Positions 597-35,700 of a stretch of DNA of 61,485 bases are shown piece after piece. The stretch spans positions 1-61,485 of the forward strand of contig CAZCDM010000001.1 in the NCBI GenBank assembly GCA_964497475.1. The letters are read 5' to 3'. The notes under the pieces were generated by a model. The model saw only the letters and a list, made by a program, of their open reading frames with translations. It ran no database searches and had not been told where the DNA came from. Both the position numbers and the translations under genes were made by a program. Origin of the DNA: an uncultured Planctomycetaceae bacterium (lineage in GTDB: Bacteria > Planctomycetota > Phycisphaerae > SM23-33). The stretch's first letter is position 1; every line of letters starts with the position of its first letter.

Positions 597-640
597 GCAT
601 CTCATTCCATGATGCAGATTGACTTCGGGTCAGGTCCTCG

Positions 641-659
641 CGGGCTTGGCCCGTTTTTT
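641..659 (+). terminator. Possible weak rho-independent terminator after the DUF3467-like gene
   Basis: Hairpin CGGGC (641-645) - TTG - GCCCG (649-653) followed directly by TTTTTT (654-659), about 45 nt after the stop at 594-596. The stem is only 5 bp with a 3-nt loop, so support is weak. Confidence 0.35.
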
Positions 660-838
660 CTCCCTTCGTGCGATACGTCACACGACTCATCTTAGCATGA
701 TCTTAACCTCGCATTAGCACCTAAATTGCAAAAGCGATTTATGATGGTTGTCCGCGACTGGCCGAGCTGAGCAAAGAGAATTTTCGCTTGATCGTCCGGA
801 AGCACCCCCCACCCCCCACGCCGCAGGCTGAGAGAACG

Positions 839-2734: not shown

Positions 2735-2740
2735 TCGATC

Positions 2741-4924: not shown

Positions 4925-4925
4925 G

Positions 4926-6911: not shown

Positions 6912-6937
6912 TCAGCATTGGAAAGGACGTTATCAAA

Positions 6938-7945: not shown

Positions 7946-8491
7946 TGTTCTATGTGAATCGCACATGGGGTTCTCAGAGTGGTGAACAGGGGGAGGTAGT
8001 TCATCATATCCGAGGATCAGATCAGAATCAGCTTCTGGAATCTTGCGAATTTTTTCTGCGTTAGCGCATTCTTTATCTGGCTGTCCGATTAATGCAGCAG
8101 CGGGAAAAAACGGGGAATCGCCCTTCTGGGAAGGGACAAAATGAAATGTCCCTGTGCATTAAATTTGAGTTTTGTAAGAGATGCGTTCAGGTCGCGCAAA
8201 GGCGAAATGCTAACGGGTCTTAACTTGAAAGCGGCTGGTATTCACTCCAGAATGTGCGCGTAGAGTACGTCTCTGGGCTTGTCATTCGGAGCCGAGCCAC
8301 CGTCAGTGACGCATTCGTAATGAAATGGAATTCGGAATAGAGCGCAGTATGCCGCTGAACTCTCCAATAAATCTTGGTCTCGTGTTTATCGCCTTTTTCG
8401 GGGCACCTTTCAGGTATGCCCTTTCCTTATTGCGCAGATCGAACGGACTGGACAGGTCTTCATCTGCGTTCATTCCACGAGGAGTGAAATC
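7946..8491 (+). promoter_or_regulatory. AT-richer 546-bp spacer; probable promoter/5' UTR of the giant gene, with Shine-Dalgarno GGAG at 8481-8484
   Basis: This is the only long non-coding gap between + strand genes. GGAG at 8481-8484 lies 7 nt before ATG 8492. There is an inverted repeat AGGGACA (8132-8138) / TGTCCCT (8147-8153). No promoter consensus can be assigned confidently for this lineage. Confidence 0.4.
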
Positions 8492-8728
8492 ATGTCTTTG
8501 ACCTCGAAAGCGTACCAACGTCTTTGCCACATGTATCGCGTTGTTCTGATGAAGATGCGTGTGAAGAACTTCATGCAGTTTGCGTATCACTCGCCATTGG
8601 CGGGCAAACGCAAGGGCAGGGGCGGTCTGCGCCGACGGCGAGGTGGCGAGGACGGGGCCACTGCGCGCGGAGGGGGTGTTGCGCCATCCAAGCGTATCGA
8701 GATGCTCGAGCCGCGCGTCATGCTTTCC
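8492..8728 (+). other. N-terminal leader: Arg/Gly-rich stretch followed by the LEPRVMLS motif (8705-8728)
   Basis: Translation: MSLTSKAYQRLCHMYRVVLMKMRVKNFMQFAYHSPLAGKRKGRGGLRRRRGGEDGATARGGGVAPSKRIEMLEPRVMLSGTPL. There is no classical hydrophobic signal peptide. LE(P/D)RxLLS after a basic stretch is a motif I recognise from the N-termini of large Planctomycetota (and some Verrucomicrobiota) extracellular proteins. Confidence 0.6.
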
Positions 8729-11700
8729 GGTACCCCGCTGGGTGATCCGGACGATGAGGAAGGTTTTTCCCAGCAGGCCCATCAGCAGATTGACGAGGGG
8801 CTTGGCAAGCTGGCTGCTCTGGGCGAGATGATTGACACTTCGACGGACTTCGCCCAGGACATCATGGTGTTTCAGGGGGCAGAGGGCCTTGGCGAGCTGT
8901 TCGATCTTGGCGATGTGGTGGCCGAGCAGTTGCGTGCTCCGCTGGCGAGTTTCAATTCGATTTCCGATATTGACGGCGATGGGCTGGACGTGGGCGATTA
9001 CATCTCGGCCCTGGAGGCCTTGGCAACGCCGGCCGACTACAGCGATGATACCGGGCCGCTTGGCTTTGCGGTGGATGTTCTGGCTGGCGGATACTACGCC
9101 GACAGCGACCAGCTCGATTTTGAAATATCGATCAATGCCGAACGGCTTAGTGAGATTACTCTGGCCATGGGCGATGAACTATCGGCCTTTGGCATTACGG
9201 CCGGCGCGGGCGAGGCGTTCGAGTTGGCCACTCAGTTGGAGTTCAATTTCGCCTTCGGCCTGATGAATGTCAATTCCACCCCGAGCTTCTACATCCGTCA
9301 GATGGGGTTGGCCTTTTCGATGGATGCCACCTCGCCGGAGATTTCCCAGCAGGTTCAGATCGCGCACCCCTCCGGTGGCGTGGCCCTGGCGACGACAGCC
9401 ACGGGACAGGTCAGCCTGCTCGATGCGGGGGCGACGGTCGCCTTTGCCGATTCGCTCCTGGCCGATGGCATGGTGGACTCGGCGGAGCTGGACTCCATGG
9501 GGGCCAGCGACCTGCTGATTGAGATGACCGGTTCCCTGGAGGCTTCGCTGGACGTATCGGCCACCGTGCCGGGCTTCAGCGACCTGGGTGGCGGGACGCT
9601 TCGTCTCCGTAGCGATTCGCTCTTTGGCGGCGAGGCATCGGAGGTGAATTTCGACGTGGCCGTCAGTGACGAACTGGCCGGCCATCTTGTCGACGTGTTC
9701 TCGCAGATTCACGGCCTGGGCACGACGCTGGCCGGTGATGCAGACCTGACGGCTGCGATTCCAGGCGTGGGGATCAGCCTCAATGAGTTGCTTGGCGAAG
9801 GTGGTATTGATGGGCTGCTGGGGCGGGTCTCTGACGCGGCAGGACAGTACCTGGCAGGGGCTGAGGACATCAGCATCTCCGAGTTGGTGGAGTATATCGA
9901 GGATCAGTTCAATGCCGCCGAGTTTGACGTTGACCTTGGCGGGCTGGACGTTCAGGGCGGCTACGATAACAGTCAGCAGACGTTGTTCATTGACCTGTCG
10001 ATGGCGCCGCAGTACACCGAGGCGTTCCAGTTGGACTTCGCCTCGATTGCCGACTCGATCGCCGCTTCGCTGCGGACCGATGCCACCGTCGATGTGACCG
10101 TCACCGGCGCGATGGACCTGCGGATCAATGTGGACCTCAGTGATCCCTACGTCACGGCCGAGGATGTGTGGTTCGCTGCAGGCCAGGGCAATGATATTCT
10201 GGACCTCTCGGCGGTGATCGAGAGTTACGATCTGCTGTTTGACGCGAGTTTTGCGGGCCTGGGAGTGACGGCTGGCACGGCGGCCAATCCGGCTTCGATG
10301 GTGGCGACGATGTCCTTGGCGGCGGGGCTGATCGACAATGATGAAGATGATCGCGTGAGCCTGGCCGAGCTGCTTTCGGGCGGTTCGGGCATTGCAGCCA
10401 GTCCGTCCGGAAGTGTCGATGTGACCCTGCCGTTTGGCGTTACGCTTGGCGGGTATGATTTCACCGACGGCGGAACGGTCCTGCCGGTGATTGAAATTTC
10501 CGACTCGGCTCTGTTTGACGGCACGGCTGCGACGATTACGACCAGCAACCTCGATGCGATGGTACTGGCGATCGTCGACGACCTGGCCAGCCCGGCCACG
10601 ACGGCCCTGCAGCAGTTGGATACGCTGGCCGGTCGGCTGGAGTCGATGCTTTCTCAGGCAGGTCTGAGCGACGCGCTGACGGCGGTGATTCCGGGCGTGG
10701 GGCTCTCGCTCAACGACCTCTTCGGCCAGGGCGAAACCGGCCTGAGCGACTTCCTGGATATCGGCCAGCATATTCGCGATTACCTGGCTGGATTCGACGC
10801 GGGAAGTTGGCAGATCGGCGATGCGCTGCCGACTCTGCCGGAACTGGTCGAGTACCTCAACCTCAACTGGATGACCACGCTGCCGGGCGAGGGCCATAGC
10901 CTGTCCTGGGAGCTTACGGCAACGGGGTTGGCGGTGAATTTCGTGTCGCAGTCGAATTTCAGCCGACAGGTGGCGTTTGATCTTGGCGCCGAGGCCGAGG
11001 CGCTGGGCCTGACGGCCGAGGGAGAACTGGGTTTCGATTTCCAGACCGATATTGACTTGGGCTTGGCGATTGACTGGTCGACCGGTGCGGTGACGGTCGA
11101 CGTCAATACCTTCGACTTTGACGCATCGGCCGACATGGCGAACTTCCTGGCTGGCGGCCGGGTTGGCCCGCTGGCGATTTCTCTGGGGCGCGACGGCCAG
11201 TACGGCTCGGCGCGGATTGACATTGCAGGGGCGGTTACCTGGGATGACACCAACGAGACCCTCGCGGTGGTGATGGACACGGCCAGCGAGGCCAATCGGG
11301 TTGACGTAACGCTGCCGGTTTTCGCTACGCTGAGCGGCACGTCGCTGGCCGATGAGGCCAATCCGCCGGCGATCACGCTGGCCGGCGAGCTGTTTCCGGC
11401 CGTGCCCGAAGACGGCGTGAGCCTAGACGTGAGCGGGCTTGGCGACTTGCTGGACTTCGGCGAGTTGAGCTTCAGCGATGTGGCTCGGGCCCTGAATGAG
11501 GGCGTGGATTTTCTTCAGAACGCCATCGAGCGGATGCCGTTCTACCGCGAGGTTCTTCCGCTGATCAACCAGAGCCCGGCCGAGATTTTCACATTCATTG
11601 ATTCGCTGCAGGACGCGGTAGACGATGCCCTGGCCGATCCGCAGGCCACGTTGCAGTCGATCGAGTCGGCCATTGAGTCGGCCCTGGGGATCGTGGATGA

Positions 11701-14700: not shown

Positions 14701-17700
14701 TACCGTCCTCACGTTGCATGTGCAGTGGGATGCCGTCTTCAGCGACATGCTCGCGTTCAATCTCAACCTCGCCGAGCTCAAAGCCTTGGCCGGCAGCGAT
14801 GCGGGCGTCGGGCTGGAGGGCATTGATACCCTGGCCGACACCCTCAACCTCACCGCTGGCGGGAACCTGCTGATGGAAGCCTTCGCCGAGGCGGTCATGG
14901 ATGTCGGCATCGACTTTGCCCCGGTGGTCGACTCGGCCTCGCTGCCGGAGATCATCGTCTACGGCTATGACGAAGCCAGTGACACCGGCACGCACGTCGA
15001 GGTTGGCACGCGTGTCACCGGGCAGGACCTCGAGCTGGGATTCTCCGTCGGCCCGATGGATCTGGGCGTCATCGGCGGATCGGTTCTGCTGGATGGCGAT
15101 GGGCAGTTCTCCACGACCGACGATTTTGCGACCTTCCAGGCCTCGCTGAACCAGGACTACACGGTCGGCGACGCGTTCAGCCTGAGCCTCATCGACTGGG
15201 ATCTCACCGGCGCCTTCGCCGTGGACCTGCCGATCGAACTGGGCATTGCTGACGTACCCCTGGAACTCGGCTCCCTGACGATCACCACCAACGAAGCCTA
15301 CGGCGACGGGGGGCTCGAAGAACTCTTCAAGAGTCTCGCTGGTGATGCGACCGCCCAGGGCCAGCCTATTTCCATTACCGCACCGAATATCGTGGGCATG
15401 TTCCAGCAGTTCGGTGGCGAATTCAGCCTGCTTGCGATTCTCAACGACCCGTCCTATATCCTTGACGGAGTGGATATGGGCCTTGGCGTCGTGCAGGATA
15501 TCCTTGGCGATAATGCGGCGATATCCCTGCCGCTGATCGGCGATAAGCTCGATAACGTCGCGACCTTCATACGCGACATGCGGCAGGGGTTCCTGGGCGA
15601 TCTTCGCCAGCGCCTCAACGATCAGCAGCCCGTCGAGATGCTCCAGGAGTCGATGTGGACCATTTTCGGGCCTTCGGCGCTGAATATCCTCCAGGACACC
15701 GATGGCGACGGCACGATTACGATCGACGATATTCAGGTCGGCTGGTATGACATCGACGGTAACCTTCTGGAACTCTGGCAGCCGGGTACAACCGTGCCCG
15801 TCGAGGCCGACGCTCTGGAACTCAACGTTTCGCTGGGCGGTACGGCCCTGAGCACGGGGATCGATATCCCGCTGGATTTCGATATTCCGGGCCTGAGCAT
15901 GGAAATCAATGGCGGGGTCGGCCTGGAACTGAACTGGAGTTATGACTTCGGGCTGGGGCTCAGCGCGACGGACGGGTTCTACCTTGTGACCAACGCCGAT
16001 GAAGAAGACGAAGAAATTGAAGTGACCATCGAGGCGTTCCTCGATGGTACGCCGCTGAACCCTGCCAGCCGGACCTACTTTACGGCCAGCGGACAGTTGC
16101 TGTTTTTCGATGCACTGGTGTCCGACAACACTACCGGCTCGGAGTTGACGGGCACGTTGAGCATCGACCTGGATGGTGGAGTCGACGGGCGACTGACGTT
16201 GGATGAGCTTCTGGCTGGTGATCCGGATGATATCTTCGATGCGGACCTGGCGGTCGATGCCAATGTCAATCTCGGCGTGACCCTGCAGATGGCTGGTTTC
16301 CAGGGCCTGCCAACCCTCGGCGGCGATTTCGTGCTGGACTGGCATTGGGATCTCGAGAACGGTTCGAGCACGCCGAACATTTCGCTGATGAATCTCAGCA
16401 TCGACGTCGGCACGCTGGTAGCCGACTTCCTCCATCCGATTGTCGAGCGAGTCAACAGCGCTCTCGAACCGGTCGCACCGATCATCGAAGCGCTGACAGC
16501 CCCGCTGCCCGGGCTGGATCGATTCTTTGACGAGCCGAATATGCTCGGCATGATCAATATCATCCAGGAGCTGCGAGGCAAAGATCCGATCGACTGGAGC
16601 TTTGTCTACGCTGCTCGTGACATCCTCGGTACGGACACGCAGCCGGGCCTGCTCGACCAGGTCGAAGACATGCTCGACATGGGGGGGGAGATCGTTCTGG
16701 GGCACATCTATGGCTTGGGAACCGACGACGTCAGCTGGTCGTCAACACTGAGCACGGGCGATAGTGACTACGCGGCCTTGGAAATCAAGGAAAGCGGCTT
16801 CAAGCAACTCGGTGCCGGTGGCAGCGCTACGGCCACCCAACGGGCCGGGTTTGAATTCCTGCCCTACATCACGGATATCGGCAACTGGGCTCAGTTGCTG
16901 ACTGGCGGGGATGCGACGCTCTTCACCTACCAGATGCCGCTGCTGACGGCCGACTTTGATTTCCGCGTATTGCTGGGCAAGATTCCCCTGCTGCCCACGC
17001 CGGTGAGCATTAACATCTACGCCAAGGGTGGGGTCGACTTCACTGCCGACCTGACGTTCGGATACGACACGTACGGCATTCGCAAGGCCATCGAGCAGAA
17101 GAATCCGTGGATGGCTTTCGATGGGTTCTATATCAGCGACAATATCGTCGGCAATATCGATAATCCCGAATTCGAGTTCGACGCAAACATCGGGCTGGAG
17201 GTCTCTCTCGATGCCCTCATCGCCGAGGTCGGCTTCAGTGGCGAGGTGGTTCTGGAGACCGATATCGACCTCAACGACGTGGTGCATGACAACAAGATTC
17301 GCGGCAGCGAAATGGTCACGATGTGGACCTACGAGCCGCCCGACGCCGACGAAACGGGTACGGGGACAGGCGATGGCGAGGAGACGCCGGCCTTTGATCT
17401 CTCGACCATCGGCGGGCCCTTGAACCTCGTCAATATCGACGCCCGGCTGGGTGCGGTCATCGGTTTCTTTGTCGAGGCGGGCATCGGACCGTTCTCCAAG
17501 CGGTGGGATATCGAGATTGCCGACTTTACGCTGATGGAATTCCAGGCCCGAGGTCCGCAGGTCGAGCCTCACCTGGCTCATCGCAGCGGCAGCACGCTCT
17601 ACCTGCACACCGGCAGCCGGACCGCTGAGCGGAAATACTTCCTGGCAGAGGATGAAAACGGCGTGGTCGACCTGGCCGATAACTATCGGCTTAGTGGCGC

Positions 17701-20700
17701 CGGCGGGGCGGTCACTGTCGAGTACGACGAGTGGACTCAGACGTATTACGGCATTACGAAAATCGTCGCCGATGGTGGCGAAGGCGATGACGTCTTTGAC
17801 GCCTCGGGCCTGCGGGATGTTCGCCTGGAGATCGATGGCGGGGCGGGCAACGACCGGATCATCGCCGGTGCGGCGGCCTCGGCCGTTCTGACCGGCGGCG
17901 CCGGAGATGACGTCCTGGACGCCTCACGGTCCTGGTATGCCTATCTCCACGGTGGCTCGGGCAGAGATACCCTTATCGGTGGCTATGGGAATGACGACCT
18001 GATCGGAGGGACGGGTGACGATTCGATCACCGGCAATGCCGGCGACGATCGCATCACCGGTGGCGCCGGGGCCGATACCATCGCCGGCGGCCAGGGCGAT
18101 GACACCTACCTCTTCGGCGATGCCTGGGGTAGTGATCGCTACCGCGACACCGAAGGCACGAGCACGCTGGACTACTCGGGCGTCACGGGCGACCTGACGA
18201 TCACGCTCAACCAGCGTGGGGCGGAAATCATCCATGGCGAGTCGCGTGAGGTGGTTACCCCGGCCGGTGATGTGCAGGACATGATCACCGATGCTTTGCT
18301 GACACCCAACCCGTACAGCCGCCCGCAGATTCCCATGCAGGAAGTCCAGGGCCTGGTGATTCACTATGTGGGGAATCCCGGCTCCAGCGCGATGGACAAC
18401 CGCAACTACTTCGAGTCGCTGAAAAACGGCGCCGGGTATGCCTCCAGTCAGTACATCGTCGGGCTTGAGGGCGAAATCATCCGCTGTGTACCGGAAGACG
18501 AAGTGGCCTATCACGCCGGAGGGGCAAACTATACCGACCTGGCACGCGATCGGTTCTGGGATGCCAATCGCGGGCGGATTTATCCGCACGACAAGGTCAT
18601 CGGCATCGAGACCTGCCACCCCGATTCGACGGGACAGTTCACGCAGGTTACGGAAGATGCTCTCGTGGCGCTGTCGGCCGATATCGTCCGCCGCTACGGG
18701 CTGAGCCGCGATGAGGTCCTGCGGCATCATGATGTGACCGGCAAGGACTGCCCCAAGTATCACGTCGATCATCCCGAAGCCTGGGAAGCGCTGGTCGACC
18801 GGATCATGGCTGCTGCGGCCCAGACGCCGGTCGAATCGGGCAGCGAGACCGTTGTGACCACGCAGCTCGGTGCGGTGCAGACCGGCCGCGGCGACGTTGG
18901 AAATATTATCACCCGCTTCGGCGATTTTGATCTGAACATCGGTCGTCCGGTCAGTGCCTTCGGTGCCGATGAAACGACCCAGCGGCTGGCCGAGGGGCTC
19001 GAAGAACTCAGCCAGTATGCACGCGACATGAAGGACTCGCTGCTGGAAGACATCGCCGGTCAGATCGGCCAGCAGATTCCCGGCACGGGCCTGAGCGTCG
19101 ATGAACTGCTCGACATGCGGGCGTATCTCGGCCTGGGCGATTACATCCAGGCCTACCTGTGGGGCTATACCCACCCCAGCGAGCCGCTGCCCGACAGCGA
19201 ACTGGACATCCCCATCGGTACCGATGCCGAGCCGACGGTTGGCGGGTTGGTCGACTACCTCGAGAGTTACTGGTTCCCGGCCCTGCTGGGAGGCCAGGCC
19301 CAGGGAAGCCCGATGACCCTTTCGTTCTCCAAGACCGACGGCGTGGTGACCGGGCTGGCGATGGATTTTGACGGCGAGGCCACCTACACACGCGACATTC
19401 TGGTTTCGCTTGGCTCCGACGCCGAAGCGCTGGGGCTGCAGTTGGCTGCCGACCAGACCGCCACCGTCGAAATCACCGCCGGGCTGGACTTCTCGATGAG
19501 CCTGGACTGGTCCAGCGAGACACCCGCCTGGAGCTATCAGGTCGACGAGTTGACCTTCGACGCACAGGCCGACCTAGACGGTGTGATCCTGGACGGAAGG
19601 GTCCACGATCTGGCGGTCACGACCGGCCGCGCCGGGGCCTCGGCCGGTACGTTCGACCTGACGCTTGATGCGGATATCACCCATGCCGCCGATTCGCTGA
19701 GCCTGACTCACAGCGGCACGGTGGCCCTGATCATGCCGATCTACGCCGAAATCGCCGGCACGCATGTCAACACCGCCCCGGCGAGCCTCTCGATTACAGG
19801 CGATATCGACGCCGGGACGAGCAGCTTCAACGCCATGAACTTTGAAACCTTCGACGCTTTTGCCGACGTCGAGGTCGAGACGATCATCCAGCGTCTCGAA
19901 ACGCTGGGCCGATGGGTCGAGGGCCTGGCTGGGCCCGACATGGGCGCGGTGGAAATCCCCTCGCTGGGCCTGACCGTGGGTGAACTCTTCCAGCTTGAAG
20001 ACAGCTGGGCCGCAGCCTATTCGCAACTGGACCTCAGTGGCGCGACAACCATTCAGGATGTCCTGGCTGCGATCGAATCGGCCGGGCTCGTTGCCAATGG
20101 CCAGGCCATCAGCTATGACGCCATCGAGCGAACCATTACCGTTCCGATGAGCTTCGACCTGAGCCTCGCAGACGTCCAGGAATTGCTGGTTAATACCGGC
20201 GGTCACTACGACGCAGAGTTCGAGGCGATGCTGCTCGATGCAATCGCCGCTCTGGCCGGCTCGGCCCGTGCGGAGGTCACCTTCGTTATCGATGCTGACG
20301 GCCCCGGCGCGACCGAAGGCTTTACCACCTCGGCTCAGATGCACATTACCGCTTCGGCCTCGGACATCCACTTCCCAGCCCGACTGGGCGACCTGGAAGT
20401 CAGCGTCGGCACCGAAGCATCCGGCACGGCTGAGATCGATCTGACGATGACCGCTTCGATGATCGAAGCGAGTGAAACCTTCGACCTGACCACCGGCGGA
20501 ACGATGAATGTCTACCTGCCTGTCTATGCGACCCTGGCCGGGACGAACATCAATCCGACACACACGGCAGGGCTGAGGCTGACGGGAACGGCCTTCGGCG
20601 CCGGTGGCATGGCCGTGACGACCGAGAATTTCGACAACCTCGTGGCCTTCGAGACGCTGACAGCCCAGCAGTGGCTCGACCGCATCGAACAGGCGGCCCG

Positions 20701-23700
20701 CTGGCGGAGCAACGACCTGGCTGCGACGGTGATTCCCTCGCTGGGGATGACTCTCGGCGATCTTGTCGATTTCGAGGCGATCTACACCGCTCTGATCGGT
20801 GGCGTCGACACCGCTGGCGTCGAGACGTTGCAGGATCTCGTCGCGGCCCTTTCCGCCGCCGGCGTGGTCGCCCCCGGGCAGAGCATAACATACGACGCGG
20901 CCGGGCGACGGATTTCCCTGCCGATGCACTTCGCTCTGGACGTCACTCCCATTTTCGAGCTGACGGCCGAGCTGGGGAGCAGCTATACCGCCGAACTCGA
21001 AGCCCTGCTGATCGAGACCATCGAGGCCATGGGCGATTCGATTACGGCCGATCTGGTTGTGTCGGTTGACCTGGACGGCGCGGACGGTTTGACGGATCTG
21101 ACCTGGCTGAGCGACCTGTCGGTGACGGCTTCGACCACTCGCCCGCAGCAGGATACGCTGTTGGGCGATCTGGAAGTGACCCTCGGCGACGGAACCACCA
21201 ACCCGACGGCTTCGATGAACATTACCGCCTCGTCGAGTCTCCGCGAGGCCACGGGCGATTTCACCATTTCCACCGCCGGTGACGTCGATGTCTACCTACC
21301 GTTCTTTGCCACCCTCGCCGGCGCTGACGTAACCCCCAGCGGCATTGCCGGCGTGCACTACCAAGGCGATATCCTGCCTGGCGATTCGACCAACGCCGTT
21401 GCACTGACCGCAGAAAATTGGGAAAACCTCGCCGAGTTCGAAGCCCTGACCGTCGAGGATATGATGACCCGGCTCGATGGCATTGCCTCCTGGCTGGATA
21501 CGCTGGGAGCCAGTGATCTCTTCGGTCAGCAACTGCCGTTCCTGGCCGAACGGCTTGGCGATGTGCTGGACTTCGGCACGGCCTTCCGGCAGGAAATTCT
21601 CGGGCAGGTCGACTGGGCTTCGGTCACCACGCTGCAGCAGTTCGTGGAGGCCTTCGAGTTGGCGGGCGTTCTGCCCGTTGGCGAGTCGATCATCTACGAT
21701 CCGTCCAGCCAGACCATCCGCCTTCCGAATGTGTTTGACCTGTCGCTGAGTACGTTCGACATGGAAGATCTCGACGCGCTGGGTCTGGTCGATACGGATT
21801 ATCTCATCGGCCTGGGGCTGCTGGACGTGGACGATCTTGACGGGCTGGATACGACGGGCTGGGGTCTCGACGATGTACTCGGTGCGGGGCTGCTCAGTCG
21901 GGCCGATCTGTTCGGCACGCTGGAGACCATCGCCGCGGCCGATCTGGTCAGCCACTCGCTGGTCTCGGCCCAGGAGATCACCGATGCGGGCTTCGACCCG
22001 GCCGGGATGATCGGCCTGGCCGAGCTGCTGGAAAGCGGCCTGACGAGCCTGGATCAGCTGGTGGCGGAAAACCTCGTCGCCCGGCAGCATCTCGACGACC
22101 TGGGGCTAATCGATATCGATCGGCTGAACCTCGAACCTGGTTCGCTGAATGAAATCTACGACCGCAATGTCCTGGTAGATTCCGTCTACGGTGAAAGCGT
22201 CGATCTGGACTGGATTCTCGACGAGGACTACATGGGCCTGGCCGAGCTGGTCTCGCTGGGGCTCATTGATAGCGGCGATCTGGACGGGTACGACTTTGAC
22301 TATTTCGGCCTGGATGACCTGACCCTGGAGCTGGGCGAGAACTATGGCTTGGACCTGGTGGGCCTCGAGGCCGAGCTGGCTGTCGACCTGCAGGCCAGTG
22401 TTGCCGCCGCGTTTGATATCGTTATCGACCTCGATGCCGCCGACGATGCCGGCGAGCTGACCTGGTACGTCGACGAGCCTACCTTCACTGGTTCGGCGAG
22501 CTTCGATATCAACAACACCGCCTCGCGTGGTCGGCTGGGCTTTATCGGCGTGACGATGGGTGATGTCGGCGGGCTCGACAGCCGCGTCGTGATGAACGTT
22601 GCCGGCACGGCGAGTCTGGATACATCCTCGACCCTGGCCGATCTCGATGAACTCCTGGCGGGTAACCTGTATGAGGATTTCACGGTCGACTACGGAGCGG
22701 GATCAATCGACCAGGCCGACCCCGAAGCGACGGGTGAGGCCTACGCGGTCTTCCGCGGGATCAAGATCCGCACCGGCATTGGCGGTATCCCGGCGGCCCA
22801 TGATGCGGAAATCTGGCTTAACGTCGCCGATGTCACCGACGGAACGATCAGTCTGGACATGCAGGACGTGCCGTGGGATTTCTATAAGCATCTGCGCATC
22901 GAGGATGTCCTTGAACTTCTGCACCGGGCCAGTGAGTATGTCCACGACGGGCTTGAGCAGTTGCCGTTCTTCCAGGCCGATGCGACTCTGCCGGATGGTA
23001 CGCCCAATCCGTTTTATGACATGAAGTTGCCCGGCCTGGACATCAGCCCGCGGGAGATCCTTGGGCTGGTGGACGATTTTGACGCGGCGGTCGAGCAGTT
23101 TGAGCAGGAAATCTACAAGCCCGAGAACGATCTTCAGGCGGCCCTGGCGTACCTCAAGGAGCGGCTGGGGATCAACCTGGAAAGCCCCGACTGCCTGACA
23201 GTCTACATGCAGGGCAACTTCATGCGGTTCGATTTCGATCTGCAGTTCCTCACGCGGCAGGCCTTCGGGTTCGATCTGAATATCGGGCAGTTCAAGGAGT
23301 TTGCCACCGGCGGGGCCGACAGCGGCTGGGATGATCTTGACCAGATGACTGCCGGAGCTGGGGCAAGTGGCGCGGCGTATCTGGCGGCCTTTGCGCATGT
23401 GGTCATCGAGGCTGGCATCGACCTCGGCCCGGACAACACCGGCGACGTGTTCCTCTACGAGTACAACGAGACGGTCGATTCGCAGACCAACGAAACCATC
23501 ATCAGCGGCACACGGCTCGAAGCGGGGCTCAAGGCGTTGGGCGAAAATCTCACGATGGCCTTCTCGACCGGTCCGCTGACCATCGGCGTCGATGGCGGGG
23601 CGATCACGATCGACGGCGACGGCGATGCGACGACCAACGTTGAAAATCTCCAGGACGAAGCAACGTTCGACCCGGCCAATCACAGCGACTACGCGACGGT

Positions 23701-26700
23701 GAGCTTCCGCCTCGACGATGGCGACGACGCCGACGATGGCGTATGGACCTTCGGTGATACCTTCGACCTCAGCGGCAATGTGGATGTCGTCGTCACCGGC
23801 GACTTCCAGGTCGACTTGCCGATTACGCTGGAGGCCTTCGGCATTGACGTGCCGCTGGGCAATCTGACGATCGAGACCGTGGACGACGATGGCACGGGCT
23901 TGGCCGACCTGTTTGATTATCTCCGCGGCGAGACGACGACCCATCCGGTTATCGTCAACCTGCCGAATATATCTGAGAACGTCGGCGATCCGCTGAGCAA
24001 CCCGCAACTGTGGATTGGCCAGCCGCTCGAACTGCTCTTGCCGACCGTGGGGCAGCTCAAACAGCAGTTGCTCGATACCCTTGCCGTCGATCCCGACGAC
24101 ACCATCGCAGGGACAAGCATCACCTACAGCGACCTGTTCGGGCCGCAGGGCCTGGAAGGGCTGCTTGACGTAGACACCCAGGTCCAGGCCTACCTCGATC
24201 ATATTGAGGCGAACAACCTCTGGACCGGGCTGAGCACGAAGATGTTCGCGGCCGGGCTGATTCACTGGCTCAACGAGAACTGGCTCAGCCAACTGCCGGG
24301 CTTCGATCCCGAAGACGGGCCCTTTACCCTGCAGATCAATGAAGCGGCCACGCAGTTTACGATTCTTTTTGACGGGGCGATGGCCTTTGGTCATCTCCAG
24401 AGTGTCGACTTGGGCGGGGCTCTGGCCGATGCGGGCGTCGATGTTGTCGAAGGTACCTTCGACCTGGCCATTGAAGCTTCGGCGAGCCTGAGCTTCGAGT
24501 TCTCCGTGGATTTCACTGACACGGCCAATATCGATTCCGACTTCACCTTCCATTCCCTGGGCTTTGACATCGCGGCCTCGGCCGATGATATCGCCATGGA
24601 GGCTGACTGGGGCGTGATGGAAGCGGCCATTGGCAACGTCGAGGACCAGCTCGGCAGCATCGCCCTGCACTTTGGCGGGACGGTTACCTGGGACGAGACG
24701 ACGGGTTTCGGCTTTGACGCTACGGGCCATACCAACAGCCTGGCTATCGACCTGCCCCTCTACGCCCGCCTGGGCGAGGCGGTCTTTGGTGGCACGGCCG
24801 GCCCGCTGGCAGGTATTTCTCTGATCGACAGCGACCTGCTTGACAACAATGCGCCGGGCTTCACGCTGACCAACACGGAAAACCTGGGGCGGAACCTTAT
24901 CGGTGCCCTTGGCGGATATGTCGAGCAGTTGGCTGGGCAGGTCGCTGCACTGAGCGACCAGGTGGCCGGGTGGGGCGTGATGACCTCGACCCTTGGCGGC
25001 ACGGACGTGTCTCTCGGCGACCTGCTGAATCTCGAAGCACTCTTCGCCGTCGGCGAGTATATCCAGCATTACCTCCACCCGATGCTGCATCCGGGACAGA
25101 CCCTGCCGGCCGGCGATACGATCCCGGTGGGCGACTACTCAGCCACCGGCGACCTGCCGACCATCGAAGGGTTGCTGGACTACCTCAACACCCACTGGGC
25201 GCCCACCCTGGGCGGCGGGGCTGACGGGCTCAGTTGGAGTCTCGACGAAACCGGGCTGCACATCGCCTTCGCCGATCAGCTTGCTGCATCGCACACCATG
25301 ACCATCAACCTCGGCGACGATGCCACAGAGTATGGCCTGGGTGTAGACGGAGAGATGAACGTCGACGCGGCAGTGACTACAGATGTGGCCCTGGGGCTGG
25401 ATATCAACCTGCAGACTGGCGAGATGAACTTCCACCTCGACCAGCTCGATATCGCCATCGCCGGCAGTGTCAGTGACCTGATTCTCGCCGGACACCTCGG
25501 CCCGGTCGATCTGGCCATCGGCAAGGCCGACGGGGACAAGGGACAGATATCCCTCGACCTGGCCGCCGGGATCAGCTATGTCGACGGCGCCTTCGCGTTC
25601 CAGGCGACCAACGATCAATTCAACGTCACGCTGCCGATCTACGCGGCCGTGGGCGGGGAGAGCCTCACCGACGAGTCGGCCACCCCGCAGGTGACCCTTG
25701 CCGGTGGGATGTTTGGCGGCTCGCCGCTGATCTTCAACGCCAGCGACCTCGATGACCTGGTGAGTTTCCAGAACTTTGATCTCGACTCGGCCATCGCGAT
25801 GGTTCCGGCACTGCTGGACTGGCTGACGGATTACGCCGAGGACAGCCCGGCCCTGCGGACTGAACTGCCGCTGCTGGGGGGCAAGACTCTCGGCGAGGTC
25901 ATCGATGTCGTGACCGTCTTCACCGAGCAGGTCTCCGACAAGCTGGACTTCTCTGAGACGGTGACGATCGGCGATTTTGTCGGCGTGATTGTCGACAGCG
26001 GCATCGTGCCTGACGGCATGGACGTGACTTACGATGCGGCGACGGCATCACTGACCATTCCGGTGAGCTTCGACGTGATCTTCGATGTCCTGGAAGACCA
26101 GGCGATTGACCTGGGGCTGGACTTCGGCGACTCGCCTTTGGCGCAGATCAGCACCGAAGCCCTGGCCGATCTGGCCGCCGAACTGCATGGCCGGATCGAC
26201 CTGGTGATGGATTTTGACGGTCCCAATGGCACGGAGGGCATGAGTTTCTTCATGGACAATGTCGAGATCACCGGGCAGGTCGGTTTTGACGTGTCTGACA
26301 TGGAAGCCGCGGCCCGGCTGGGGATTCTTGGCTTCACGGCCGGCGGGCCCGACAGCCGCATTCTTCTTGACGCCACTGCTTCGATAACGGTCGAAGACCC
26401 CGACGACGAGCGAACGCGCTTCAGCTTCCAGGAACTCATCGGCGGCATCGTGACTAAGGCGGTCCAGTTCGATCTGACGGGGGATGCATCCGTCCGGCTG
26501 ACCGACCTGGCGGTGGAAGGGTTTGATTCCCTGAGCTTCGGCGAGAACGATGAATTCTTCGTGCGGGTCAATGACCTGGCCGACCTGACGACGACCGAGA
26601 TCGTCGCCATGCCGGACCTCAGCGGCTTTGATATCAGCAACCTCTCGAAGGACGACCTGCTGGCGGCCCTGGACCAGGCGGTTATGGTTCTGCGCGATTC

Positions 26701-29700
26701 GCTACGCTCCATGCCGATGTACCGCCAGACCATTCCGGTCATCAACCAGACGCCTGAGGAGTTGTTCACCATTGTCGAGGAATTTGGCGATGCCGTGGAC
26801 GCACTCCGCAACGACCCGGCCGGGGCGGTCCAGCAGCTCGAAGCTCGGCTGGAACAGGCCCTGGGCATTGTCGATCCGGACGATACGATTCTCAACTTCA
26901 CCCTCGACGGCCAGGTCCTCCGCATGATGCTGAACCTGGAGTATGTCCTGGCCAAGTCCCTGGGCTTCGATATGGACCTCGCGGCGGTCAAATCCCTGGC
27001 CGGTGTCGATGCCGGAGCTCTGGAAGGAGCCGATTCGCTTACCAGCGCCGACGCCACGGGCGAGCTGCTTCTCAAAGCCTTCGCCGATGCCCGCATCGAG
27101 CTGGGGATGGACTTCTCGGCCATGACCGATGACGATGGCAACCGCACCGGTGAGCCGGCGGACATCTTCCTGTACGACTGGGACGAAGCGACCCAGACCG
27201 GCACGAAGATTGAGGCTGGGTTCAAGGTTCTCGGCCGGGAACTGTTCCTCGGCGCCGAGATGGGCCCGCTCGAGCTGGAGGTGATCAACGGCGCGGTCAC
27301 GGTCGATACCGATGGGGACCCGACGACCAACCCCGAACTGCTCGACCCGGCCGACCGCAGCGACTTTGTGACCTTCACGGTCACGCTGGATCAGTTGCCC
27401 GAGGCCCAGGTCAGCGACGACGGGCGGTTCCGATGGTTCGGCGAGAGCCTCCTGAACAGCCTGGACTTCGATTTCGGTGGAGCCTTCTACGTCAATCTCC
27501 CGGCCCGACTCAACGCGTTCGGCGAGGTCTTCTACCTCACCGATACGCCGCTGCGGATCAGTGGCAATATGAGCCTTGATGGCTTCAGCGATGTGGAGTT
27601 CCAGTATCCGGATCTCAACGCACTGCTGGGGCAGATGACTTTCGATACCGGCCTGCGCATTGCCCTGGAAGAAGTTGGTCAGCTCATCGGCCAGCTCAAG
27701 GGCGACCTGCTGTCCAGCGTGAACCTCGACCGTGAGATTCCGGGTCTGGGTGTGACGTTTAACGAACTCTTCGGCAGCGGCGGGCTGGAAGCCTGGCTCG
27801 ATGTCGATACCCACATTCTCCAGTACGTGACCGATTACGACTGGTCCGGCGGATGGAACCGCATCGCCTTTACTTCCGGACTGCTGAGCTACCTGCAGGA
27901 CAACTGGATTTCCACCCTTGGCGGGTACGAGGATGGCACGGAAAGCCCGCTGAGCCTGAACCTCGGCGACAACGGCTTCGAGGTGGTCTTTAATGGCAAT
28001 GCCGGCTTCGTTCTGGACGACCTGCCGGTCGACCTGGCCGGCGAACTGGCCGACAGCGGCCTGGTCGTCACCGGCGATGCCGCCCTCGACGTTGAAGTCG
28101 ACACCGAAATGAAGTTCGCCTTCGAGGTCGGCTTCGATGGCAGTTTCGATTTCGACTTCGATTACTTCCGCTTCGACACCTCAGCTGACGCAGAAAATCT
28201 AATTTTCGGTGTCGAGTACGGCCCGCTGGAAGCCAGTGTCGGCCATGCCGACTACGACAAGGGCCAGCTCCATCTTGACTTGGGCGGCGAGATTCTCCAG
28301 CGCGACGGAAGCTGGCAGATGACACCCTCCGGCGGGGTGGATGTTTACCTGCCGCTGTACGGCGCGATCAACGGTGTGGCTGTTGGCGGGGCCGACGGGC
28401 CGCTGGCCGGCTTTGTGCTGACCGACAGCGCCTTGTTCGACGAGCAGTTGCCAAGCTATATCGCCCCAGACCAGTACGATGGGCAGGATCCGGCCTTTAC
28501 CGTGACCGGCCTGGAAAATCTGGGCAGGAACCTCAGCGGCCTGGCCGCGGGGTATCTCCAGGAACTCGGCGAGTACATCGAAGATCTTCGCGTCGACCTG
28601 ACTGGGAGCAACGGCAGTCTTGCCCAGTCGATCGTCGGAACCGATACCACCATTGCTGAGATGCTCGGCATGGACTCGCTTCTGAGCCTCGGGCAGTACA
28701 TCCAGCACTATCTCCATCCGTTTGTCAGCGGCGATGCCGAACCGCCCTTTGGTGAGGACATCGCCCTGGGCACCTACGCGGAGGGATATCCGACCGTCAG
28801 TGGCCTGGTGGAGTACCTCAACACCAACTGGGTGCCGACCTTGGCTGATGATGACATGGGCTTGCGCTTCGCCATGGACGCCAACGGGCTGACCGTCAGC
28901 TTTGATGGAGCGTGGAATGCGGGGACCACGGTCGGCTTTGACCTGGGCGACTGGGCGGAGACGGCCGGCGTGGAACTCACCGGCAGCGGCGATGTGAACC
29001 TGACGGTCGCGGCCGATCTGGATATGGCCTTTGCCCTGGACTGGACGACGGGCAGCTTCGACTTTGACCTCAATGAACTGATTTTCCAGGCCTCGGCCGA
29101 TACCCGCAATCTTGTGCTGGGCGCAGCGGTCGGTCCGCTGGATGTCAGCATCGGCCGACTCGGCGGGCAACTTGGCGAGATGGCCCTGAGCCTTGGCGGA
29201 ACGGTTTTCACCGACGAGACGACCGGCGCGTTGCGCTTCACGGGTGGCGGGAACAACACCATCGACATCGACCTTCCGCTCTATGCCACCCTCGCCGGTG
29301 AGGACATGACCGACCCGGCCGCTTTGCCCCGGCTGCAGCTCAGTGGCGATCTGTTCGCGCCTGTTCTGGCCACGCCCAACTTCGACCAGCTCATGGATCA
29401 GGTCGCCTCGATGGACTTCCAGACCGTCCTGGCGATGATTCCCGATCTGCTGACCTGGCTGGGCGACCTGGCGGGCGAATCGGCCTTCATGCAGACGACC
29501 CTGCCGTTTACCGATGGCGTGACTCTCGGCGAGTCGCTGGACTTCGTGACCAGCTTCGCCGACGAAATCCAGCAGAAGATCGACTTCAGCCAGGTCGATA
29601 CCCTGGGCGAATTCGTCTCGGCGTTCAACGACGCTGGCGTGCTGCCCGAGGGCGAACTGATTACCTATGATGCCGTCGCCCAGGCTCTGCGCGTACCGCT

Positions 29701-32700
29701 GGCCTTTGCCAGTGACCTGGCCGTCATGGAAGACCTCGCTCTGGATCTGGGTATGGATCTGGGCGATTCGTCCCTGGCCGAACTCTACACCGAAGCCCTG
29801 GCCAACATGAACGCCTCCGTGGCCGGGCAGGTCGATCTGGTGATCGACTTCAGCGGGTCGGAGGTGAGCCTGGCCGTGGAAGATCTCGAACTGTCCGGCT
29901 CGGCCGAGCTGGACGTCACTGACTTCGAGGCCGGGCTGGTCGTTGGCCCGCTGGCGATGACTGCCGGTGGCGCGTCGACGGGCAGCGGTCTGCACTTCGC
30001 CGTCCAGGCCGACTTGGCCTTGGATCGCGATCCGGCCGCGGTCGTTGCGGGCGATACTCGCTTTACCCTCGGCGAATTACTCGATGGCTCGGCCCTGAGT
30101 CACCTTGTCGCCAGCATCGACGGCGATGCCTGGGCCAAGCTCCAGGGGCTGGCCCTGGAAAGTGGAACGGGCGCGTTCGATGTGCCCATCGCCTCCGATG
30201 CACAGGTCTCCATCTGGCTGCCTGATCTGGGCGGCGATAATGCTCCGGCCCAGCTGGCCGATTTCCTGGCCAGCAAGACCCTCCAAGGGCATGTCGTCAC
30301 AGAGGTCGGCTCGCCCGGCGATCCGGGCTACATGATCGTCGTCTATCCCGACCTCGGCGATGCGCTGTCGCTGGGCAACCTCACCCGCGGCGACCTGATC
30401 AACGCGCTGTTCGAAGGCCTCGATCTGCTCGACGGACTTCTCAGCGACATGAGCTTCTACAACCAGGACCTGCCGCTGGTCAACCAGTCCCCGGCCGACC
30501 TGTTCGACTTCCTCTCGCGGATGCGCGTGGCCATCCAGTCGATCGATATCAACTGGGATGGCTTTGACTGGGGCACGCTGGACTTCGGCCACTTCGACTG
30601 GAGCGGCCTGAACTGGGGCGGGATCGACTTTGGCGCGTTGAACTTCGGAACCTTCGGCTGGGCATCGGGTGGCGGAGCCACCGACGGGTTGAACCTCGGC
30701 TCGTTGGATATCAGCGGCCTGGACTTCGGGGCCTTCGACTGGCGGCGGTTCGACTGGACGGCCCTGACCGGCGGGGCTCTGTCGACCAGCGGTGCGAACT
30801 GGGCAGCGATGGACTGGAGCCCGTTGAACCTTGGTTCCCTGAATCTCGGTCAGCTGGACCTCAGTGGACTGGACTTTGGCCAACTCGACTGGAGCGGATT
30901 CGACTGGGCGGGTCTGTTCGGGCAACTCGATCTCGGCCAGCTCGACTGGAGCCGTCTCGATGTAAGCGGAATGGACTTCGGGGGCATTGATCTCAGCAGC
31001 TTCGACCGCAATGCCGATCCGTCCACGTGGAATTGGGCCAGCGTCGATTTCAGCGGGTTCGACTGGGCGGGCCTGAACTGGGGCGAGCTGAACTGGGGCG
31101 AGCTGAACTGGGATGCCGTGGACTTCAGCCAGCTTGACTGGTCGAACATGAACTGGCCCAGCGGCCTGTTCGAGGGCCTCAACTGGGGCGATCTGAACTG
31201 GGGCGATCTGGACTGGGCTGCCGTGGACTACAGTCCGATTGATTCCTCCTTCGATCCGGCGGGCATTGACTGGGCCTCGATTGATTTCAGCGGCTTGGAT
31301 TTCGGCTCGATCGACTTCAGCAAACTCAACTGGGCCAGCCTCGACTGGGCGAATTTCGACTGGGGCGGCCTGGACTTCGCCGGGCTGGACTTCAGCGGCT
31401 TTGATTTCGGCTCGCTCGACTGGAATGCCCCGAATCTGGGCGCCCTGGACTGGTCGGGCCTGAACTGGGGCGAGCTGAACTTCGCCGGCATCGATATCGG
31501 CGGCGGGATCCAGTCGTTGGAGACCAGCATTGAAAAGGCCCTCGGCATCGCGGAAGACAATTCCCTCGATCCGATGGATCAGATATTCTCGCTGTGGATG
31601 GACGGCCAGAGCTTGCGGGTTCATCTGGACACGGACATGTTCTACCACGAGCAGATCACCTTCAACCTCGAACTGGCAGAGTTGCTGGCCGACGCCGGTG
31701 TCGATCCGGAGGTGATGGACATCCTCAGCCAGCTCGTCGCCGCCGATGGCAGCGGCACGCTGGACCTGGCCGCCTTTGCCGAGATCGGGATGGACCTGGA
31801 GATCGACCTCTCCGATGGCACGCCGGTTGTCCAGTTGATGGACTATGACGTTGCCAGCGGTTCCGGAACCCATTTCGATGCCGGCCTGAAGGTGATCGGG
31901 AGCAATCTGGACCTGACGGTTACCGCCGGCGAGGGGCTGTTGAGCCTGGCCATCGATGATGGTACGGTCACCGTCGATGCCGATGGCGACTCGGCCACCA
32001 ATCCCGAGCAGGGCGATCCGAACCTGTTTGTCGATTTCGATTCGTTCCAGGCCCAGTGGGACGCTTTCCTGGCGGCGAACCCGGGCTTCGAGCTGACCGG
32101 CTATGACTTCTCCGACCCGACCGACCTGCAGCAACTCTACGGCCAGAGCGTCCACTTCCTCGATTGGGTTCGATTCATTGGCGGCATGCCGGTGTTCGAC
32201 CTGTCGGCCTATGATCTCAGCGACTTCCTGACCTTCTCCGTCCACAAGACCGCCTCCGGCGTGGATGCGGCCCTGGGTGGCAGCTTCGATGTCAACCTGC
32301 CGGTCACACTCGACCTCAACGGCTACATCGACGATCTGGACAATGTCCCGATCCATCTCGGCGGCTCGTTCAGCCTGGCCGATGGCCTGAGCCTCGCGAC
32401 CCCGACGCTGCCTGATATCGCCGGGGCCCTGGGCGAGAATCTCGCCGATATCGGCATTGACTTGATGCTCCAGAGCCTCGCCGATCAGATCACCAACGCC
32501 AAGGATGCTCTCGTTGGCAGCATCGACCTTGACCAGCCCATCGCCGGAACCGACGCGACGATCAACTCGCTGCTGGGTGACGGCGGGGCCGAGGCCTTCC
32601 TCAGCATCGATCAGCACATCCACGAGTATATCGACTCCGTCACCGACTGGACCGCCCTGAGCCCGACCGAAGTGGCCGCCGGACTGATGGACTACCTCAA

Positions 32701-35700
32701 CGATCACTGGGTGCCGACCCTGCCGGGCAGCCTGGGCGGAACCAGCCCGTTCTCTATCGAGATGCTCCGCAGCGATGGTGCGATCAGTGGCTTTACGCTC
32801 GGTTTCGACGGAGAGGTCGCCTTCGCCGAGCAACTCATGCTTGACCTGGCCGATCAACTGGGCTCGGCCGGCATTGAGGTCGAGGCGGACATGAACTTCG
32901 GCGTCGATGTCGAAGCGGCCCTGGATTTCGACCTGACGATCGACTGGGCTCACGATGTGACCGACTTCACTCTCAACTCCCTCCGATTCGATGCCAACGC
33001 AGACGCGGCCGACATCCTTGCGGCGATTACCATCGGCCCGCTGGAAGCCTCGATCGGCCATGACGAATACGAAAAGGGCAGGGTCAACTTCGGCCTGGGT
33101 CTGCTGGCCCAGACCACCGGCGGGAGCCTGCAGTTCGAGCCGACCGCGTCCCTGCTGGTCGAGCTGCCGCTGTATGCTTCGATCGGTGGCATCAGCTTCA
33201 GTGCCGACGGCACGCCCGTGGCGAACGTCAAGTACACGAACCTCGACCTGTTCGGCGGCGGCAGCCAGGCCGACTTCGACACACTCCTGCAGGTCGATCT
33301 GGTCGACCTCAATCAGCTGATCGATGAAAATCTCATCAGCCAAGCCGACCTCAAGGACGGCTTGCGGCTGGGCGTTGATGCCCTCGTCACCGCCGGTCTG
33401 ATCAACGCTGGCGATCTCGATTCCATCGCCCGCGTGAATCTCGCGGCGCTACTGGAGACGGGGCTGGTTGATCTCCAGGCCCTGGCCGATGCGGGCCTGG
33501 TCGATCTCAGCGACCTGCGGAACCTGGGCGATTACGACCTCGATACGCTGATCGATGCCGACCTGGCCGATCTCGGGGAACTGGTCACCGCCGGAAAGAT
33601 CACCCAGGCCGACCTCGCCGACGGGCTGGCCGTCTCGGCCGGTGAGCTCATCGCCAACAATCTGATGACACTGGCCGATCTGATTGACAATCAGTACGTC
33701 GTGCTGGGCGACTTCAACGATCTCGGCCAGGCCGATCTGGACGATCTTCTGGCCGACGAGATTGTCGATTTCCTCGAACTGGCTGCCACCGGGTTCATCA
33801 CGGAAATCGACGTCGACGACTTGGGTTCCATGGCCCCGGCCGATGTCATCACCGCCTTGCCGAACGTGACGATGACCGACCTGGCCGAGCATATCACCGG
33901 CGGGCAGGTTGATCTCGATGCCGTCCTGGGCCTGGCCAACGTGACCCTCACGCAGATGGTTGAGGTCGGGCTGGTCGACGCAGCGAATCTGGACGATTTG
34001 GGACTGGCCCTGCAGGCCGACGTGGAAACCGCTTTGGGCATGACGGCCGGCGATCTCGATTCCCTGGCTGACGAAAATGGAAATGTCGACCTTGATGACG
34101 TTTTAGCCATGGCGGGGGTTTCCCTGCTGGACATGGTCAACGCCCAGCTGGTCGTCGCCGCCGATCTGCTTGACCTCGGCCTGGTCGATACGTCAACTGT
34201 CCTGGCCGGGTTGACGCATCTTTCGGCCGCTGATTTTGCCGACGATATCGTCGGCGGGCAGATTGACCTCAACGACGTGCTCGGGCTGGACAATGTGACC
34301 CTCACGCAGATGATCCAGGCTTCGATGACCACGCAGGCCGACCTGCTTGATTTGGGCCAGGCCGATCTGAGTGCATTGGTTGCCGGCGACCTGGCGAGTC
34401 TGGCCGACTTGGAATCTGACTCCTATATCGATGAGACGTTCCTCAAAGAGACGGCCTCGGCTTTGGTCGATTCGCTGCTCAATGACAGCCTGACCACCCT
34501 TGGTGAGTTGGTGGCAAGCCATCTCGTGACCCGCAGCGATCTGATCGATCAGCCCCTGGCCGATCTGGCTGAGCTGATAGCTGAGGATCTCGTCGATGTC
34601 GGCGGTCTCTTCGCGTCCGACATGCTGGACATCAACAATCTGGCTGGTCTGGGCGAGACAGCTCTCAGCGACCTGCTGGCGGCGACCAGCCTTTCCACCG
34701 GACAACTCAATGACCTGCTCGAAGTCGATGTGCAGGACCTGCTGAGCAATTCCTCGGTGACCCTGGCCGGGCTGATCTCCGGCGGGTTCATCTCGCACGG
34801 CGACTTCGCTGATCTGGGCAAGGCTCTCATCGGCGATCTCACCGCTGCCGGCGGGCTGCTGGAAGGTCTCCAGCTCGGCCTTGTGCCTGAGGGCATGGAC
34901 AACTTCCAGGTCATGCTCACCAACTTCGTGGCGGGGTATCTCAACGACCTGGCCGGCGAGCTGGTCAGCCTGCGGGAAGATCTCGCCGTCGAGTACGATG
35001 AGCAGGGCAATCGCATCAGCGACCACGTGCTGAGCAATCAGATCGCCGGGACCGATGCGAGCATCGACTCGCTGCTGGGGCTCAGCGATCTGCTCGGCCT
35101 GGGCGACTACATCCAGCATTACCTCCATCCGTATCTCAACCCGGGCGTCGATCTGCCGGCTGGCGATCCGATCCCTGTCGGGACTTATGCGGGCTATCCG
35201 ACCCTCAGCGGCCTGATGGAGTATCTCGACGTGAACTGGCTGCCGACTCTGAGTGCTCGCGACGGGGCGGGCATGAGCTACGAGCTGACGGAGAACGGCT
35301 TTGCCATCGACTTCGACGCCGATGTGACCTACAGCGACGAGATCGGTTTGCGACTTGGCGCCGAGGCCGACGAGTTGGGCTTCAAATTTGACGGAAATGC
35401 CGACATTGACGTCGACGTGACCAGCAATATCGACTTCGAGCTTGAACTGGACTGGCTGACGGGCGATTTCGGCTTTAACCTCAACGAGCTGGGCTTCCAG
35501 GCTGACGTATCCACAGACAACCTGGTACTCGAGGGCATACTCGGCCCGATTGAACTGGGTCTGGGCAGCAGTGAAAGTGGCGAGGAAATGGCCTCGGCCG
35601 CCCTGAGCCTCGGCGGGGCGATCAGCCTGGTTGACGGCGTCTTCGGCTTCACGCCGGCGACAAACACCATCGACGTCGATCTGCCCGTCTATGCCGAACT

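Follow-up and report, generated by a model that had tools for sequence, protein, structure and literature searches.

A giant gene of an uncultured Planctomycetaceae bacterium contains, deep within its coding sequence, a complete amidase domain of the type found in phage endolysins. The gene lies in a 61,485-nucleotide stretch of DNA (assembly GCA_964497475.1, contig CAZCDM010000001.1), hereafter called the window. Its open reading frame (ORF) runs on the forward strand from position 8492 to the window end at 61485, comprises at least 17,664 codons without a stop, and is preceded by a stop codon at 8321, with the first ATG at 8492. The amidase occupies residues 3265-3440 (18284..18811, + strand), in agreement with an earlier reading of this DNA (the original prediction) that had placed it some 3,280 residues from the start of a protein exceeding 17,000 amino acids. 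We favour, at a probability of roughly one half, the reading that this is a domesticated endolysin domain carried on an extracellular fibre, where it would cleave foreign peptidoglycan, be it in neighbours, in prey or in wall debris.

The identity of the domain is established by several kinds of comparison, namely Pfam, PHROGs, profile searches against the PDB, and structure prediction followed by Foldseek. Pfam model PF01510 (Amidase_2) matches residues 3283-3422 over positions 3-130 of its 131 columns (E=5.4e-24; 85.4 bits versus a cut-off of 26), which bears out the family assignment made previously. The members of this family are zinc-dependent N-acetylmuramoyl-L-alanine amidases. With PHROGs, the amidase segment matches endolysin families (phrog_9611, E=1e-39), and a profile of the family detects XlyA (8e-13) and PlyL (1e-8) among PDB entries, along with PlyG, AmiD, T7 lysozyme and AmpD. 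The motifs quoted in the original prediction are present, as translation of 18326-18810 (+ strand) gives VIHYVGNPG, NRNYF, QYIVGLEGEIIRCVPEDEVAYHAG, IGIETC and RHHDVTGKDCP. Homology to stand-alone amidases extends from M3264/I3265 (nt 18281/18284) to approximately residue 3440 (nt 18811), and thus the boundaries given earlier were correct to within about 45 nucleotides. This homology begins with DM-ITDALLTPNPYSRPQIP, which corresponds to the extreme N-terminus of the stand-alone proteins; for example, homologue P0120 starts with MKITDALLTPNKYSRPQIPLK.

Alignment to PlyL locates the active-site residues. His3291 (18362..18364, +) corresponds to PlyL H29 and is zinc ligand 1, and Glu3373 (18608..18610, +) aligns with PlyL E90, the position that carries the mutation of PDB entry 2ar3. 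The motif HHDVTGKDC (18725..18751, +) carries His3412 (zinc ligand 2, PlyL H129), Lys3418 (PlyL K135 and T7 K128) and Cys3420 (zinc ligand 3, PlyL C137). The His, His and Cys residues proposed originally as zinc ligands align with those of PlyL, XlyA and PlyG without substitution. Two alignments of small homologues were prepared, A1 with 25 sequences and A2 with 51. Of the columns in which the 51 homologues never vary, the window amidase keeps all 22, and of the 22 columns that are at least 90% conserved it keeps 20, even though overall identity to these proteins is only 38-59%. Lys3418, Glu3373 and the zinc ligands are among the residues that are invariant in the 51 homologues. Judged by its sequence, the domain is a complete and regular PF01510 member of the PlyL/XlyA/CwlA endolysin type, and it is apparently active, as nothing in that sequence argues against activity.

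An AlphaFold2 model of residues 3215-3520 supports this assignment. The predicted local distance difference test score (pLDDT) is 94-98 across the amidase and then falls below 50 for about 25 residues. This low-scoring stretch (residues 3450-3473; 18839..18910, +; query residues 236-259), which separates the amidase from the repeats that follow, is predicted to be disordered and can be read as a flexible linker. The best Foldseek matches to the model are PlyL, XlyA and PlyG, with template modelling (TM) scores of 0.80-0.85 normalised to the target (0.83-0.85 for PlyL and XlyA) and E values of 6e-10 to 6e-9. The domain therefore shares its mixed alpha/beta fold, its His-His-Cys zinc site and its Glu and Lys residues with PlyL (1yb0), XlyA (3hmb/3rdr), PlyG (2l47) and CwlA-type amidases, and it starts and ends where PlyL/XlyA/PlyG-type endolysin domains do, followed likewise by a flexible linker. 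In stand-alone endolysins, this linker leads to a wall-binding domain. No match to SH3, SPOR, LysM, ChW or PG_binding domains was found in the 17,664 residues of the giant protein. Moreover, endolysins are proteins of 150-300 amino acids encoded in a lysis cassette, whereas the window amidase is preceded by 3,264 residues in a protein that is 17,664 residues long or longer and is encoded by a planctomycete gene of 61% G+C content (GC). Functionally, then, the window amidase is not a phage endolysin, because there is neither a lysis cassette nor a recognised wall-binding domain.

The Foldseek search also returned the peptidoglycan recognition proteins PGRP-LE, PGRP-SA and PGRP-S, whose fold is common to the amidase. 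We therefore considered whether the domain might serve mainly as a PGRP-like, peptidoglycan-binding adhesion module that tethers the fibre to cells or debris, such that hydrolysis is irrelevant. The remainder of the protein does resemble an adhesin-type repeat fibre. However, PGRPs that only bind typically lose the Cys zinc ligand, whereas the window domain retains each of the three zinc ligands as well as Glu3373 and Lys3418, together with the full set of invariant columns and nearly all of the near-invariant ones. This makes a purely adhesive role improbable.

The position of the amidase within its carrier was examined by comparing the giant protein with itself (self-BLAST), from which the internal layout was derived. 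Residues ~1500-3290 are paralogous to residues ~8958-10857 (37-44% identity), and the latter segment ends in the second of two RTX blocks. Within the first segment, region C1 (residues ~2400-3260; 15689..18271, +) is a single-copy paralogue of residues 9900-10860 (37-44% identity in self-BLAST) and holds RTX block 1, which consists of eight GGxGxD nonapeptide units at residues 3095-3207 (17774..18112, +; Pfam HemolysinCabind, E=5.7e-9, and motif count). The amidase follows this block, and thus lies at the junction of two mega-modules as had been proposed. Its paralogous counterpart, region C2 (residues ~9900-10860; 38189..41071, +), contains RTX block 2, which also has eight units (residues 10656-10768; 40457-40795, +; HemolysinCabind, E=1.3e-7, and motif count). 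No amidase follows RTX block 2, and the sequence of this paralogous module simply continues without one. From this arrangement, the amidase would have been either gained in one mega-module or lost from the other. An exhaustive HMMER search of 1.84 billion representative proteins recovered only 77 relatives of repeat family A, the repeats that flank this region, with two below 1e-30, and none of the 77 carries an amidase. The paralogous module without an amidase, together with these 77 relatives, argues for a lineage-specific gain.

The relatives of the domain point to an endolysin ancestry. Among the 120 best of 917 database homologues, all are 165-292 amino acids long and 46-57% identical to the window amidase, those with a name belong to Clostridia or Caudoviricetes, and none is a large protein. 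Amidase relatives in species-representative genomes are almost all from Lachnospiraceae and other Clostridia (31-55% identity), and none is from Planctomycetota. Deposited phage genomes (cultured or from GenBank) contain 57 matches, all below 60% identity; among those listed, most are annotated as endolysin or amidase, and the stated hosts are mainly Bacillus, Listeria and other Firmicutes. In a neighbour-joining tree, the sister of the window amidase is P0001 (208 amino acids), whose gene is immediately followed by small and large terminase genes. The gene for another homologue, P0043, resides between portal and capsid genes, and both of these homologues are thus encoded on phage contigs. A rare insertion of 20 amino acids is common to the window amidase, P0001 and P0002; it measures 14-15 amino acids in P0005, P0043 (where it is 15), P0086 and P0103 and is absent in the remaining aligned family.

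Separately, a viral contig (L154; IMGVR_UViG_3300012002_000306, positions 5001-5513) was seen to encode an amidase of this family with 43% identity. The sample number of this contig (3300012002) is near that of the source metagenome (3300012009), which suggests that phages with such endolysins may be present in the same or a related habitat.

Given that the closest relatives come from phages or from another phylum, and that the source is a metagenome assembly for which no orthologue was found, the fusion could in principle be an artefact, either a chimera of a phage or Firmicute endolysin with a planctomycete gene or a decaying insertion in a pseudogene. We regard this as exceedingly unlikely. 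The amidase segment matches the rest of the giant gene in GC (0.606 versus 0.613), in GC at third codon positions (0.75 versus 0.77) and in synonymous codon choice (z=0.2), whereas the contigs of its relatives range from 28 to 58% GC. Codon usage that matches the host gene implies that the fusion is old and not chimeric. In addition, both junctions are in frame within 17,664 stop-free codons, every invariant residue is kept, and a best database identity of only 57% leaves no plausible donor read set. On the source contig as given by JGI (Ga0153773_1000277; 61,641 bp), the gene call has the same start and yields a product of 17,688 amino acids that reaches the contig end. Independently assembled microbial-mat contigs (ENA PRJEB25599) carry the same upstream genes and the same start of the giant gene, and one of these encodes an open product of 3,578 amino acids from that start, which is long enough to cover the amidase. 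These findings indicate that an endolysin catalytic domain was probably captured long ago, after which it adapted to the host gene and was maintained by purifying selection, and that the fusion is neither a recent insertion nor an assembly chimera.

Searches for the junction itself, with flank, amidase and flank together, yielded matches to the amidase part only, both in JGI metagenome contigs (human-gut and other metagenome contigs) and in GTDB species genomes (Clostridia). Similarly, a homologue search with the amidase and both flanks returned ordinary RTX proteins that cover at most 24% of the query.

Several properties of the carrier are consistent with an extracellular, calcium-binding fibre. 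These are the RTX blocks, both of which are internal in the visible protein; an acidic composition, with 11% Asp and 5% Glu (16.5% Asp+Glu); a scarcity of Cys, with 7 among 17,664 residues; and the lack of any membrane segment, as no 19-residue window exceeds a hydropathy of 1.8. Three of the seven Cys residues (3332, 3375 and 3420) fall within the 176-residue amidase, a share that marks the domain as compositionally distinct from its carrier. The 3' end of the gene is incomplete, with the C-terminus, and any immunity gene that might follow, beyond the contig end. The protein begins with a very basic leader of 84 residues (RKGRGGLRRRRGG...) that has a LEPR-XLL motif at its end (RIEMLEPRVMLSG, residues 68-84; 8693..8743, +; NCBIfam NF012209, 20.7 bits versus a cut-off of 17). 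The carrier is to be classed as a LEPR-XLL-type giant repeat protein and not as a classical RTX toxin. The original description of a giant RTX protein was correct in that two RTX blocks exist, but it overstated their share, as these are two short blocks among 17,664 residues of a LEPR-XLL carrier.

We envisage that the giant protein would be exported to form an extracellular or surface fibre, in which the RTX block would fold in external calcium. The amidase would be displayed while tethered to the fibre, or might be released by proteolysis, and would then cut stem peptides from the glycan strands of any peptidoglycan that the fibre contacts, whether in the walls of neighbours or prey or in debris. 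The approximately 14,000 residues of repeats behind the linker would take the place of the cell-wall-binding domain of an endolysin and could supply targeting. If the producer is diderm, its outer membrane would protect its own wall, and no immunity protein would strictly be needed. The presence of the amidase in a fibre-like protein suggests that the walls of other cells may be digested. A more specific and tentative version of this reading, in which we place less confidence, is that of an 'endolysin on a rope', wherein the fibre of more than 17,000 residues might act as a contact weapon or harvesting line that lyses neighbours with exposed walls or strips peptides from debris in a microbial mat.

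An alternative is that the amidase acts on the producer's own sacculus, either by opening or trimming it for assembly, passage or anchoring of the fibre, or by assisting the separation of daughter cells. Planctomycetes do possess peptidoglycan (Jeske et al. 2015, as cited in a 2026 Omnitrophota preprint). The catalytic residues are intact, and the amidase is located only about one-fifth of the way into the visible protein, beside an RTX block, where it would be near the wall if the N-terminal part stays at the cell. However, machines that span the wall normally recruit lytic transglycosylases rather than amidases, and an unfolded chain that passes through an export channel needs no hole in the wall. 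Furthermore, the relatives of the domain are lytic endolysins and not housekeeping enzymes of the AmiC or AmpD types (29.5 bits with the NCBIfam AmpD model, whose cut-off is 143), and no such domain occurs in any of the 77 related repeat proteins. On balance, we consider a role at the producer's own wall to be unlikely.

Several observations also weigh against an endolysin domain that acts on foreign walls from an exported fibre. An amidase that is applied externally reaches peptidoglycan only in cells that lack an intact outer membrane. With respect to export, no classical or hydrophobic signal peptide was found at the N-terminus of the giant protein, and the 8.4 kb upstream of the gene contain no ABC transporter, although genes with MFP domains are present there. 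No recognisable enzyme other than the amidase was found in the 17,664 residues, and the protein is thus not an obvious multi-enzyme lytic weapon. Finally, no orthologue of the same architecture was found among the JGI contigs, the GTDB species genomes or the repeat relatives.

The remainder of the giant protein is composed mostly of repeats. A unique N-terminus (residues 1-300, +) precedes a first run of repeat family A (residues ~300-2300; 9392-15391, +), which has a period of ~260-300 amino acids and is followed by region C1. A second run of family A occupies the interval between the amidase and region C2 (residues ~3440-9900; 18812..38188, +). After RTX block 2 comes a unique stretch (residues ~10860-11500; window 41069-43000, +), then repeat family B with a period of ~112 amino acids (residues 11500-14300, +), a further unique stretch (residues ~14400-16000; window 51689-56500, +) and family B again from residue 16100 to the window end (+). 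Other than the amidase and the two HemolysinCabind blocks, no further Pfam domains were detected in the protein. Neither family A nor either unique stretch has a Pfam match at E<=1 beyond noise or a sequence match in the PDB. The AlphaFold2 model of family A (pLDDT 70) has a helical bundle followed by antiparallel beta hairpins of 18-20 residues and finds no Foldseek match (best E=0.06). In secondary-structure pattern only, this arrangement is similar to the 'antiparallel beta helix with exterior helices' of Omnitrophota giant proteins. The sequence LEPRILLSA opens several of the proteins that are distantly related to the repeat region. The unique stretch at residues 10860-11500 follows RTX block 2 just as the amidase follows RTX block 1, and it could hide a functional domain that is not recognised. 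On the minus strand, dozens of long ORFs (up to 1,626 amino acids) overlap the giant gene (9179-61473), including one antisense to the amidase (17924-19174). These are most likely by-products of 61% GC and the strong codon bias of the plus-strand gene.

A cassette of co-directional genes (225-7945, +) is located upstream of the giant gene. It encodes a DUF3467 protein (225-596, +), a protein with GAF and MFP domains (788-2734, +), a 727-amino-acid HExxH intramembrane metalloprotease fused to an MFP-like region (2741-4924, +), a 661-amino-acid SecA-like ATPase that lacks C-terminal domains (4926-6911, +) and a 335-amino-acid MFP (6938-7945, +). The metalloprotease has thousands of homologues, of which those with a name belong to Phycisphaerae/Planctomycetota; the best match other than itself is 52% identical, and many of the homologues carry a weak Pfam match to the PqqD family. 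On this evidence, the organism, which lives in a microbial mat, is probably a divergent, Phycisphaerae-like planctomycete. The cassette is conserved across Phycisphaerae. In one case (L005), the cassette adjoins an OEP/TolC-like gene. This cassette may constitute a SecA-driven tripartite exporter or a processing system. That it might be an exporter dedicated to the giant protein was considered and rejected as unsupported, because three other Phycisphaerae genomes have the cassette without a giant gene within 10 kb. No phage genes were seen near the giant gene.

Comparison with other large proteins helps to define what is unusual about this one. MARTX toxins and RTX adhesins are large and secreted, with calcium-binding RTX blocks and internal functional domains; the internal domains of MARTX toxins are effectors. 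The window protein, in contrast, has only two short RTX blocks and neither a cysteine protease (CPD) autoprocessing domain nor MARTX-type (A/B/C) repeats (Pfam, E<=0.001), and MARTX cargo acts inside eukaryotic cells whereas the window cargo would act on cell walls. Phage tape-measure and tail proteins with embedded wall hydrolases, and type VI amidase effectors, likewise place a wall-cutting domain on a long delivery structure. Their enzymes mostly belong to other families (lysozyme, CHAP and NlpC/P60, not Amidase_2), and the window encodes no delivery machine of this kind. In polymorphic toxins, the toxin module resides at the extreme C-terminus and has an immunity gene beside it; the window amidase is internal and is thus not that module. 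The amidase is indeed internal, as the original prediction stressed, but this is less exceptional than was claimed given the embedded domains of MARTX toxins and tape-measure proteins and the SLT domains of giant Omnitrophota proteins.

The closest parallels are found among other giant proteins. NCBIfam NF012209 describes LEPR-XLL giant proteins ('LEPR-8K'), with which the window protein shares the N-terminal motif, scored above the cut-off, and a very large size; unlike the window protein, its 77 repeat-region relatives lack an amidase. A literature search for LEPR-XLL yielded incidental mentions only. West-Roberts et al. 2023 (bioRxiv 10.1101/2023.11.21.568195) reported SLT lytic transglycosylase domains in giant Omnitrophota proteins, proposed that giant proteins of putative predators degrade prey cell walls, and noted proteins of at least 10,000 amino acids in Planctomycetota. 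Amidases are mentioned neither in that study nor in the 2026 Omnitrophota preprint. Like the giant proteins of Omnitrophota and other members of the PVC superphylum, the window protein is very large, comes from the PVC superphylum, carries a peptidoglycan-active domain and has a SecA-like gene at its locus. Omnitrophota giant proteins, however, are rich in transmembrane helices and have a SecA_DEAD domain within the chain, whereas the window protein has neither, and the SecA-like gene is separate and upstream.

Hardly any part of giant bacterial proteins has been annotated, and arguments about what they do rest on the few domains that can be recognised. In the protein described here, the sole identifiable enzyme in 17,664 residues is an intact lytic amidase of phage ancestry, which provides a hypothesis that can be tested by cloning a segment of about 190 residues. 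The idea of giant proteins with wall-degrading domains is already in the literature, and what is added here is a single instance whose target we infer. This instance would add Planctomycetota to Omnitrophota as a source of wall-degrading giant proteins, amidases to transglycosylases as their enzymes, and apparently fully soluble carriers to membrane-anchored ones. It also represents a clear case of a phage lysis module that has been domesticated into a putative cellular surface protein. If the 'endolysin on a rope' were to prove true, the organism would possess a bacteriolytic strategy that differs from those of type VI and type VII effectors, polymorphic toxins and membrane-anchored Omnitrophota giant proteins.

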